Positions 1 to 3,000 of a stretch of DNA of 6,495 nt are shown here, one piece after another. Every line of letters starts with the position of its first letter. The stretch's first letter is position 1. Made by a program: the position numbers. The stretch is taken from the IMG/VR virus record IMGVR_UViG_2548876695_000003, positions 1 through 6,495 of that record, one strand, 5' to 3'. This DNA comes from a virus (Duplodnaviria > Heunggongvirae > Uroviricota > Caudoviricetes).

Positions 1-3000
1 GGGATAGTGTATTAAATCAGATATGGAGTGGGCTGTAGTCCGGAAGCCTGAATGACACACGGGGACTACAGCCCGAAATACGAAAAAGGCCGCGCAGTTG
101 CGCAGCCTTATGAATCCTGGTTAAAATCCGCACGATAAAAATGACAATGCAAGTATCTCATGCTGTTGCCCGAACCCACTCGGGCTTTTTTTTGCATGTA
201 AAAAGGCTCCTGCGATGAGGAGCCTGGATATATGCCTAATCTCTGTATACAGCATGATGCCGGGTGCCTCCCGGTGAGTTCGGCCTGGTGCCACCAAACC
301 CGCGTATTCTCGCTTACGATCATCAAAGAGATCATACCGTTCACCAGTCGCCCCTCCGCACAGGGGGATTCACCATGCAGAAATTTTCTAACACATCTAT
401 TATCAGACCGGCAACAACTGACTGAATTGAGATGTATTTAACATTTATGAATCTCCGCCTGCTATTTTCACTGAGCTATTCTGAGTCAACGAAAAATAAC
501 TTCGCTGAATCCCCCTCCATTATGACAGGCATTAGTTTTAATGGTTACAGTCATCCCCGTAATTTGCGCACTGAGAAGAAGAGACTGAAGATTCCATCTG
601 TTGGTAAATAATTCTTTATCACCCACTTTAACTGTAAAGGTATCGTCATCATTATATTTTGTATACTCCACCTTTCCAGTTACACAATCAGGCGTCGCCA
701 GCGCACTTGCTGAAAAAAATGAAAGCGATGCAGCTATTAATAATGTTTTTTTCATTTTACCCCCTCAACTGCTAATAGTTCTGCGCATCAGAATTGCCCC
801 CAGAGTGGATGAATCCCACAATATTTTATTGTGCGTAATCCCACGGACTCTTCCATCTGCCGGACACATAGAAGGAAACTCATCAGATGCCATTCTGGCA
901 ACTCGCGATGCATGATGATGACAATTCAGTATTAATGCCACGCTTCCCAGAATTGCATTAATGCTTCCAAAAGAAATTCTTCCTACACGAACAGAGTCTT
1001 GTCCATGATAGTCAGGCAGGACGCTACTCAACCTTCCCCAGTTCAATGTAAGATCAACATCTTCAGCAGTCATTACATAAGAACGCCCACTGAGATCATC
1101 CAGTGTTGTACGAAATCCCCTCTGTATTTGCCGAAAACGTAAAGCTTCAGCTGTCACAGTAACAAACCGTAACATCGCTCTTGCCACAGACTGCGTCAGT
1201 GAGGTTCCACTATGCGACATTAAATCCAGATAAGAAGTAGTCAACGAATGGCGATTTATCTGCATCCCCGTACGACTGATCCCTGCAACACGCTGTAACG
1301 TGGTATAGCTACTGTCACCAGACAATGTAACCGCTGTTGTACCTGGAAAGGTAACATGTGAAAAATCAGCAAAGCGATAAAAAACATTATTTGTCCTGTT
1401 AACAAATCCTGTCACATATAAATTATTTCGTTCAACAATAAGCCGTAGATTATTAAACCGCCCTTCCTCTGGATCTATCCCTCTGACATCAACTGCAAAC
1501 AAATTATCCCCTGTGCCACTATCAATCATCAGTAAAGACGTACCTCCTGATGAAATAGTCTGTAATGGAGTACCTATTGCAGAGCGAATGACATTCAGCG
1601 AATCTACATACGTCTTTGCAGTCGAGAAGTCTAAGGTAAATTCCTTCGCCACCACATTAACTGAAAAGATAACAAAGAAAAAAGTTAGCACTCTAAAAAT
1701 AATTATTTTCATATTACACAATACTCCTTGAGCACCATACGATAACTATATTCTTGACATCCTCCACGCCCTGAAGGACGGCGTTTTACGGCGCACCGGA
1801 TAAACGTAACAATAACGTAATGAAAATGATAATCATATTCAAAGAGAGCTGCAACCTTAACATATCTGGTCAGATCTCATGCGACTACTTGACGTACGTA
1901 GATAACAACATTTATTGATACACAGGATGTTACGGACATAAAAAAGCCAGCCACTGGGGGAGGCTGGCAAACTCGTAGAGCAAAATGCTGTTACGCAAAC
2001 TTCGTTACAGGGTCATCCTGCAATACAAAAAATACACAATATTTAGAAAACTAATAGTGCCATGTGCAATTTTTAAGATTTTGTTATTAATTGTGGTCGC
2101 ACCTTCCTTTCTGTGTACTTTCCGTATAGCTCACAGGATTCTGGGTACAAAAAAACCCGCGCATCGGCGGGTTAAGCAGCGTGGCAATGTAACCACTCTT
2201 ATCATGATATGCAGATTTTTACGATCGTAAACTATTTTTTCGCTGATAAAATACAGAGGTTCTCCCTCCCGGCAATTCACGCTCAACATACCGATCCATC
2301 TCAAGCCTCACTCCCAGCATCATCAGCATGCCTTCAACAATCCCCTCCGCTTTGTGAAGGCGTTTACCTATACAGGTGTCAGAGCACCCATGTTTCCGTG
2401 CCAGCGCCATGAACGTCTCCCCCAACACGTAATAATCAACCAGCAAGTCATGCAGATCGCTGTTGTTCCTGTTAAGGCGAGCCATACACCCGCATATAAT
2501 CATCGCGTCATCGTCACAACACTGTGGACGTGATTTTACTTTTTCGGGGATCAGTCCCTTAAATCCGGCAGCAATGGGCGACCATGTAACATCCTCATGG
2601 TTATTTGCCGCCCATGCCCCCCAGCGCTCAAGAACCTGCCGGATATCACGCATCAGTATCTTTACCCCATCCGCGATGAACCATAAGGACGCCATTGACG
2701 ACGGCGTGCTTTTTCCCTTCTTTATCGCCAATGTATTTTCTGACTGTGGCACGATTGCAGTTCAGTATTCGGGCTACCTCGGTCTGATTTCCATATGCCT
2801 CAAGGAGCATGTCAGGAATGGTTTTTACGGTGAACGTCATGCGGCCTCACTTCTGCTGTTTCGCAGGTCTTTAAGTTTCTGCTGATACTTCGCCTTGATC
2901 GCCCTGCATTCTTCGACAGTCCAGCGATGGCGGTTATGGTTCGATTCGATTTCGTCTACTGCTTCCTGCCCGATGCGGTTAATCAGTTCGACGCGATACG

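Follow-up and report, generated by a model that had tools for sequence, protein, structure and literature searches.

Why should a plus-strand terminator, with a perfect hairpin beside it, lie in a phage operon that is transcribed along the minus strand? This question is raised by the non-coding DNA downstream of the Shiga toxin gene stx1B in a Caudoviricetes genome, IMG/VR record IMGVR_UViG_2548876695_000003, of which we analysed positions 1 to 6,495 (the window). A preliminary description of this DNA had reported the hairpin followed by two back-to-back terminators, and had considered the plus-strand terminator unexpected in a unidirectional late operon, implying a convergent transcription unit to the left of the window. 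We instead arrive, with a probability of roughly 85%, at the known convergent small RNA (sRNA) dyad of lambdoid prophages, in which an STnc100-type RNA is opposed to the anti-sRNA EcOnc03; how it would work in the lysogen and after induction is set out below. As such, the observation is real and non-random, and its main content is the rediscovery of a published dyad located 3' of stx genes.

Gene context and published dyads

Within the window, the Q antiterminator gene (2219..2752), stx1A (765..1721) and stx1B (486..755) are all on the minus strand. Over positions 1..520 there is 100% identity with phages BP-4795 and YYZ-2008, with many Stx1a-converting phages and with the Stx1 prophage of O157:H7 PV15-279. 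In BP-4795 and PV15-279 the left neighbour is nanS-p/yjhS, a minus-strand gene for a SASA-family sialate esterase whose start codon lies about 15 bp to the left of window position 1; beyond it follow the holin, endolysin and Rz genes, minus strand throughout. Since Q, stx1A and stx1B share their strand with nanS-p and the lysis genes, positions 1..485 are the stx1B-to-nanS-p intergenic region in the late operon, read from right to left, of a BP-4795/YYZ-2008-type Stx1 phage. Inspection of the left flank for a plus-strand gene, as had been suggested, found 100% of the annotated genes within 5 kb on the minus strand in both genomes, and the plus-strand unit is contained wholly inside the window.

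A convergent sRNA pair between a moron coding sequence (CDS) and the downstream open reading frame (ORF) was described in lambdoid prophages by Tree et al. 2014 (PMC4104026), and 'sRNA dyads' at the moron site of such prophages also figure in Sy and Tree 2021 (PMC7873438). The published example is AsxR (EcOnc02) with EcOnc27, 3' of stx2B in Sp5, and the same organisation is given for Sp3, Sp4, Sp9, Sp10, Sp11, Sp15 and Sp17, of which Sp15 is the Stx1 prophage (PMC4104026). In these papers the dyads are two Hfq-binding sRNA genes placed tail to tail, in at least eight Sakai prophages, both Stx phages included, and the arrangement in the window shows no essential difference from them. A plus-strand terminator at this site of the late operon is thus part of a published convergent layout (PMC4104026, PMC7873438). 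The features of the region, from right to left, are as follows.

486..755, minus strand: stx1B, the upstream moron CDS of the dyad (context).
194..441, minus strand: STnc100-family sRNA gene (family of EcOnc27/sRNA103), from an Rfam match at 407..194; probable 5' end at about 429.
199..225, minus strand: T1, intrinsic terminator serving the STnc100-family sRNA as well as Q-independent stx1 transcripts, from the terminator scan, the 3' hairpin of the STnc100 model and a fold z of -4.10.
133..193, plus strand: EcOnc03 anti-sRNA gene (AgvB/AsxR family), from 51/51 identity, Rfam and the terminator scan.
98..127, plus strand: probable sigma-70 promoter of EcOnc03, with -35 TTGCGC at 98-103, an 18-nt spacer, -10 TAAAAT at 122-127 and start at C133.
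76..109, minus strand: T2, second intrinsic terminator behind T1, from the scan and the fold.
30..74, minus strand: hairpin H, most likely part of the 5' leader that precedes nanS-p in the late transcript, some 44 nt before the ATG of that gene, from the inverted repeat, the fold and its substitutions.

The plus-strand terminator ends an EcOnc03 gene

A consensus terminator scan of positions 1..2400 returned six terminator-like sites, compared with 1.7 +/- 1.2 in shuffled sequence, and three of the six fall within 1..225. Both terminators of the preliminary description were recovered: the one on the plus strand has its stem at 168..185 and a T8 run at 186..193, and the one on the minus strand (T1, first placed at 200..224) has an 8-pair stem at 225..204 followed by TTTTTACATGC, with its TTTTT run. 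Between the T8 run and the A-run at 200..204 there are only six bases (194..199), which places T1 and the EcOnc03 terminator back to back. A G+C-rich hairpin with an immediate U-run, as in intrinsic terminators, is present in the EcOnc03 terminator, T1 and T2, and terminator loops in the region measure 4-7 nt.

So what does the plus-strand terminator serve? Positions 139..189 of the plus strand are identical at 51/51 nucleotides to EcOnc03 as given in Fig. S4 of Tree et al. 2014. In Rfam, 133..192 of the same strand scores 56.6 bits for AgvB (RF02702), barely above the gathering threshold of 56, and 46.8 bits for AsxR (RF02703), below the threshold of 63. A variable 5' region (133-151, CGAUAAAAAUGACAAUGCA) precedes a conserved 3' module (152-193, with the stem at 168-185 and T8 at 186-193). 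The locus shows the layout of the anti-sRNA class, namely a variable 5' stretch of 14-18 nt ahead of a 3' module of about 42 nt that is conserved, a total of 51-60 nt and a convergent partner at the moron site. EcOnc03 has in common with AgvB and AsxR this 3' module, comprising Hfq-binding hairpin and terminator, and is like them in length class, promoter and place in the dyad, whereas its 5' region carries neither the CACAACA of AgvB, which mimics GcvB targets (R1), nor the UUAUUAAACG of AsxR. The plus-strand terminator ends a self-contained sRNA gene of about 51-60 nt (133..~190) that has its own promoter.

The -35 and -10 hexamers of that promoter do not vary among 28 different forms of this region in viral contigs, at AgvB-type as well as EcOnc03-type loci, and they are identical in Sakai Sp9. 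There, EcOnc03 is among the most abundant Hfq-bound RNAs, gives northern bands of 56, ~54 and 51 nt, has primary 5' ends mapped by RNA-ligase-mediated rapid amplification of cDNA ends (RLM-RACE), and is destabilised in an hfq mutant (Tree et al. 2014, PMC4104026). From about 280 to 76, Sp9 and the window are all but identical, both promoter hexamers included, and the order in Sp9 is tRNA genes, an STnc100-like RNA, T1, EcOnc03 on the opposite strand, T2, a hairpin and a nanS-p homolog. EcOnc03 of Sp9 thus has the same 51-nt form, the same promoter hexamers, an STnc100-type partner, and T2, the hairpin and a nanS-p homolog downstream; it differs in lying behind tRNA genes, and not behind stx1AB of a BP-4795/YYZ-2008-type phage, and in its neighbouring hairpin, which is of type C there and type A here (see below). 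In the later literature searched, we found no paper naming EcOnc03.

An alternative is that a plus-strand unit, either a moron or a long antisense RNA, begins to the left of the window, crosses 30..74 and ends at T8, so that 39..193 would be its 3' untranslated region. The good plus-strand terminator at 168..193 would suit such a unit, as would the closure of all plus-strand frames by position 38 (TAA at 13-15 in frame 1, TAG at 5-7 in frame 2, TAG at 36-38 in frame 3), which holds just as it was first reported. However, what lies to the left is the beginning of the minus-strand gene nanS-p, and all genes annotated over 5 kb there are on that strand, the RNA that ends at T8 is EcOnc03, of 51-60 nt and with primary 5' ends mapped in Sp9, and the substitutions in the hairpin disrupt pairing on the plus strand. 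We regard a unit entering from the left as highly improbable. Of the earlier suggestion that 39..193 is a 3' region or a small plus-strand RNA, the small RNA ending at T8 survives, but it starts at 133 and the hairpin lies outside it; similarly, a moron or antisense RNA convergent with the toxin operon was correctly placed in a moron region, but not in its origin to the left.

By analogy with AgvB, which acts on GcvB, and AsxR, which acts on FnrS, EcOnc03 most likely acts in trans as a sponge of another sRNA. We compared its 5' region with 21 core sRNAs using RNAduplex and shuffled-query controls, the core sequences being entered by hand. The AgvB-GcvB control was recovered (-19.4 kcal/mol), compared with -10.0 kcal/mol for the predicted EcOnc03-GcvB duplex, which does not stand out from shuffled queries. 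Compared with the remainder of the window, the EcOnc03 seed gave one strong complement only, its own antisense.

Anti-sRNAs mimic target sites in mRNAs. For this reason it is worth noting that a 10-mer, AUGACAAUGC, is common to EcOnc03 (142..151) and to the start-codon region (4724..4733) of the minus-strand ORF 4326..4733 (135 aa). Chance alone would produce about 0.13 such matches, and we consider it probably a coincidence.

Several points count against the account of EcOnc03 given here. Its -35 matches the consensus at only three of six positions and is weak, because of which the consensus scan gave no promoter call. Its expression and Hfq dependence have been demonstrated in Sakai only, in another phage than the present one. 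The sponge role is drawn by analogy, and the target screen returned no partner above the shuffle background among the 21 core sRNAs, a screen that also missed the AsxR-FnrS control.

The minus-strand partner is an STnc100-family RNA

On the opposite strand, the STnc100 model (RF02076) matches 407..194 with 190.7 bits against a gathering threshold of 47, covering model positions 1-206 of 206. The preliminary description had remarked on the long 3' region of stxB; its length of about 260 nt is correct, from the stop codon at 486-488 to the start of the T1 stem at 225, but it is actually an sRNA gene of this family. In the loci compared, which lie behind stx1B, stx2B, tRNA genes and other contexts, homology starts at a -10-like element, which reads TTAAAT here (441..436, with TG at 443-442) and TGTAAT behind stx2B. 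Across these upstream contexts it keeps a fixed distance, 3-4 nt upstream of the conserved TCACAATTCAG. From these sequence features, an extended -10 promoter of its own is probable for this RNA. Transcription starting near 429 would yield a predicted RNA of about 230 nt (~429..199); EcOnc27 runs at ~235/247 nt on northern blots (Tree et al. 2014, PMC4104026). On the other side of the balance, the argument for this promoter is solely the positional conservation of the -10-like element, and processing of the stx mRNA is another way in which the RNA could arise.

The relatives STnc100, EcOnc27, sRNA103 and PasD occupy the same slot, 3' of a moron and 5' of a sialate esterase gene, and with its full-length model match the window copy is the Stx1-phage allele. 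The northern probe for Sp5 EcOnc27 has no match in the window within three mismatches, hence the alleles differ over that stretch. As for locus tags, ECs2973 is presumably stx1B. The ECs2972-ECs2973 intergenic region has a row in the read-count table of intergenic regions from Hfq crosslinking and analysis of cDNAs (Hfq-CRAC; Tree et al. 2014). Overexpression of sRNA103 has reported effects on fimZ and espA (PMC7873438 among the sources). STnc100 is related to PasD, which lies directly upstream of a sialate esterase gene. The STnc100/EcOnc27/sRNA103 RNA 3' of stx2B is the subject of recent renewed discussion, and sequence variants in the STnc100/EcOnc27 region 3' of stx2 are among the features that predict haemolytic uraemic syndrome (PMC12711010).

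The same DNA is annotated as protein-coding in two phage records, as 'ORF42' in BP-4795 and as a 'conserved hypothetical protein' in YYZ-2008 (~108..335, minus strand), and an open frame of 78 aa (108..344) is indeed present. Yet this frame crosses two terminators and the antisense of EcOnc03, contains in-frame stops in Stx2-type, Sp9-type and AgvB-type relatives, receives no call from the PGAP annotation pipeline in identical O157 sequence, and lies on DNA that matches an RNA family over its full length. Because the frame is not conserved in relatives, the ORF42 annotation is probably spurious, and we give a small protein at this place hardly any chance.

A second terminator and a strand-specific hairpin

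Two elements lie beyond the dyad. T2, which the preliminary description had missed, consists of a 10-bp stem (109..86) followed by the U-rich tail 85..76, TTTCGTATTT, and folds at -18.3 kcal/mol (z = -4.34). The stem shares sequence with the -35 of the EcOnc03 promoter. T2 is almost invariant among the loci compared, and its commonest variant, a G to A change on the plus strand, gives a G.U pair on the minus strand only (as read off the sequence).

Hairpin H is the inverted repeat first described at 30..74. Its arms (30-41 and 63-74) are 12 nt each, 100% complementary and separated by 21 nt, and the repeat holds up better than shuffles on both strands: as minus-strand RNA it folds at -27.2 kcal/mol (z = -6.08, with 0 of 200 shuffles as good), and as plus-strand RNA at -24.5 kcal/mol (z = -4.94). 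About 150 loci yielded 12 distinct versions, with three main types: A, that of the window; B, of Stx2/AsxR-type phages; and C, Sp9-like. The stem is kept in all three, with loops of 21, 27 and 25 nt, respectively, that differ in sequence as well. Read as minus-strand RNA, the 12 versions can pair in 97.2% of cells, compared with 86.1% in the same columns as plus-strand RNA. Six pairs vary on one side only, always giving G.U on the minus strand, and on the plus strand the same six depart only through unpaired cells; in two further pairs both sides have changed in a compensatory manner (U-A to C-G and A-U to G-C). For the type C hairpin the strands differ clearly in stability, with about -21 kcal/mol on the minus and about -12 kcal/mol on the plus strand. 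Counted by hand, seven of seven separate one-sided transitions are wobble-compatible on the minus strand, for which p is about 0.008 in the absence of a strand preference, provided that the events are independent. We assign hairpin H to the minus-strand leader because its substitutions preserve pairing as minus-strand RNA and break it on the plus strand. As far as sequence comparison can tell, it most likely forms as RNA within the nanS-p leader of the late transcript, where its structure is probably under selection, and is outside any plus-strand RNA; it lies upstream of the plus-strand EcOnc03 promoter.

With its G+C-rich 12-bp minus-strand stem directly downstream of two terminators, hairpin H could be thought a third terminator, or a pause site, in tandem with T1 and T2. 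It is however followed by no T/U-run on either strand, its minus-strand tail being ACUCCAUAUCUG, and the terminator scan did not call it. Moreover, its loop of 21-27 nt compares with 4-7 nt in the terminators of this region. Lacking a U-tract, it is not an intrinsic terminator, and a role in tandem with T1 and T2 appears unlikely.

More serious is the view that 30..74 matters as DNA, as a palindrome that serves as a protein-binding or recombination site at a mosaic boundary, or that it is inherited sequence without function. It adjoins a module boundary, and in viral contig L098 homology stops between T2 and the hairpin; it is also eroded in one Stx1 prophage lineage, and the lineages that inform on it are few. 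But neither a DNA palindrome nor neutral drift predicts a strand bias, and the one-sided transitions all give G.U on the minus strand and a mismatch on the plus strand, two pairs have changed on both sides, and the loop varies where the stem is kept. We hold this view to be improbable, though well ahead of a third terminator.

The strand-specific RNA structure in the nanS-p leader has, for its part, several observations to contend with. The type B stem contains a U.U mismatch, the sole non-pair on the minus strand. The number of pairs with a change on both sides was reached in 126 of 500 shuffles and is not significant. The evidence comes from three sequence types plus singletons, in few and closely related prophage lineages. 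The Stx1 prophage of O157 strain 2571 shows erosion of both the hairpin and T2, from which it follows that neither is indispensable.

Beyond these loci, hairpin H alone has 2113 occurrences, spread over 791 of 5426 complete E. coli genomes, and among the 30 matches listed none overlaps an annotated feature. The upstream regions of four other nanS-p homologs were examined: one (L143) has the hairpin, and the Escherichia albertii copies and one E. coli strain have unrelated leaders. A scan of genome contigs for a wider sample of nanS-p leaders gave six loci, of which L143 alone has the hairpin, the leaders of the rest being unrelated.

Two possible roles of the hairpin were considered and rejected. 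It folds autonomously within the leader, and the folds of type A and type C leaders leave the Shine-Dalgarno sequence uncovered, so neither the hairpin nor its flanks mask the ribosome-binding site of nanS-p. Separately, the type A loop contains AATGACA (51-57), the same 7-mer as EcOnc03 140-146, which gives the minus-strand loop a 7-nt complement to EcOnc03. This type of hairpin accompanies AgvB alleles as well as EcOnc03 alleles, and the 7-mer is absent from types B and C; as it does not co-vary with the anti-sRNA allele, we take it to be probably a matter of chance.

In the literature searched, nothing was found on a terminator or structure 3' of stx1B or in the nanS-p leader, nor any description of hairpin H, and both T2 and hairpin H are absent from the keyword-retrieved passages of Tree et al. 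2014 and Sy and Tree 2021. The undescribed residue of the region is the second terminator together with the strand-specific leader hairpin, and its interest is modest.

An intergenic region of exchangeable cassettes

Comparison with related loci shows how the region is assembled. In some O157 Stx1 prophages, the match to the window begins only at about position 186 and extends to the right. In O157:H7 strain 2571 (locus L148), the STnc100 gene and T1 are the same, and the plus-strand slot is taken by an unrelated cassette (~1100..1215). This cassette keeps TTGCGC upstream and brings its own terminator (CCGCTC...GAGCGG followed by T8), with junctions at the T-run and near the shared TTGCGC. It has no match in Rfam, and may represent an uncharacterised sRNA allele in the dyad slot. 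Because of this swap of a single strand's slot, the boundary near 186 and the boundary in L098, we conclude that the intergenic region behaves as a set of exchangeable cassettes.

A further locus, L144 of Escherichia albertii NBRC 107761 (~1280..1420), lies upstream of a diverged nanS-p homolog. It contains an STnc100/PasD-like 3' part and a T2-like terminator (GGCTGCGCATGGCGCGGCC followed by T7), after which a small hairpin of unrelated sequence (ATCTGCCACTGGCAGAT) takes the corresponding place, and it has no anti-sRNA gene. This layout may be a simpler or ancestral one.

How the region may work

What is observed is which two sRNA genes are present, with which terminators and in what gene context; from here on we infer how these parts would work together. 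In the lysogen, transcripts not modified by Q, arising from the Fur-regulated stx1 promoter and the STnc100 promoter, would stop at T1, with T2 (109..76) acting as a backup for polymerases that read through. Toxin could then be made without nanS-p and the lysis genes. Such a stop fits the published statement that Pstx1 yields Stx1 without phage-induced lysis (PMC7547250). From its own promoter, EcOnc03 would be made and act in trans with Hfq, probably as a sponge, if the analogy with its relatives holds.

After induction, Q-modified polymerase would pass both T1 and T2. The late transcript would be fully antisense to EcOnc03, and hairpin H (74..30) would head the nanS-p leader. The single-stranded, U-rich stretch from T2 to hairpin H is a plausible endonuclease site, and after cleavage the hairpin might shield the new 5' end of the nanS-p/lysis mRNA; this is our best guess and the least supported step. 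As background to it, 5' stem-loops of the ompA-leader type stabilise mRNA. The likeness to the ompA leader, which serves as an analogy only, consists in a stable stem-loop near what would be the 5' end after cleavage in the adjacent U-rich strand, a processing that is itself presumed here. The stabiliser role is a guess from anatomy. That hairpin H is a functional cis-acting element, governing how stable the nanS-p/lysis message is or how it is processed, separately from the toxin part, is a tentative proposal, and we would not bet on it.

Other features of the window

Elsewhere in the window, a terminator-like hairpin is found just 3' of Q on the minus strand (2154..2173, followed by TTTTTGTACC), with a promoter-like site at 2231..2204. 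This hairpin is probably tR', in which case the short pR' transcript would be the StxS-type sRNA of Sy et al. 2020; an Rfam scan matched no family at 2154..2173. Three minus-strand matches above the gathering threshold lie further to the right: C4 antisense RNA at 5611..5526 (74.3 bits), isrK at 5708..5634 (78.6 bits) and c4-a1b1 at 5721..5669 (50.1 bits). This cluster (5526..5721) is located just upstream of a 224-aa minus-strand ORF (4802..5476) that appears antirepressor-like by eye, and together they look like a P1/Gifsy-type antisense-RNA control module for an antirepressor.

Meaning for Stx phage biology

These findings leave the published picture of the dyad unchanged, and add three things to it. 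Stx1 phages of the BP-4795/YYZ-2008 type carry the uncharacterised EcOnc03 allele in their dyad; the dyad slot is exchangeable, with one O157 Stx1 prophage harboring an unrelated cassette; and a second terminator and a strand-specific RNA hairpin lie between the dyad and nanS-p. The practical use is in annotation, since ORF42 is probably spurious and the sRNA genes are unannotated in the records examined. An sRNA dyad beside the toxin genes is one route by which Stx phages rewire host regulation. AsxR de-represses the use of haem, and AgvB aids growth in bovine mucus; by analogy, EcOnc03 may serve Stx1 phages as a sponge for some further host sRNA. If hairpin H indeed acts as tentatively proposed, it would uncouple toxin from lysis-gene expression at the post-transcriptional level.

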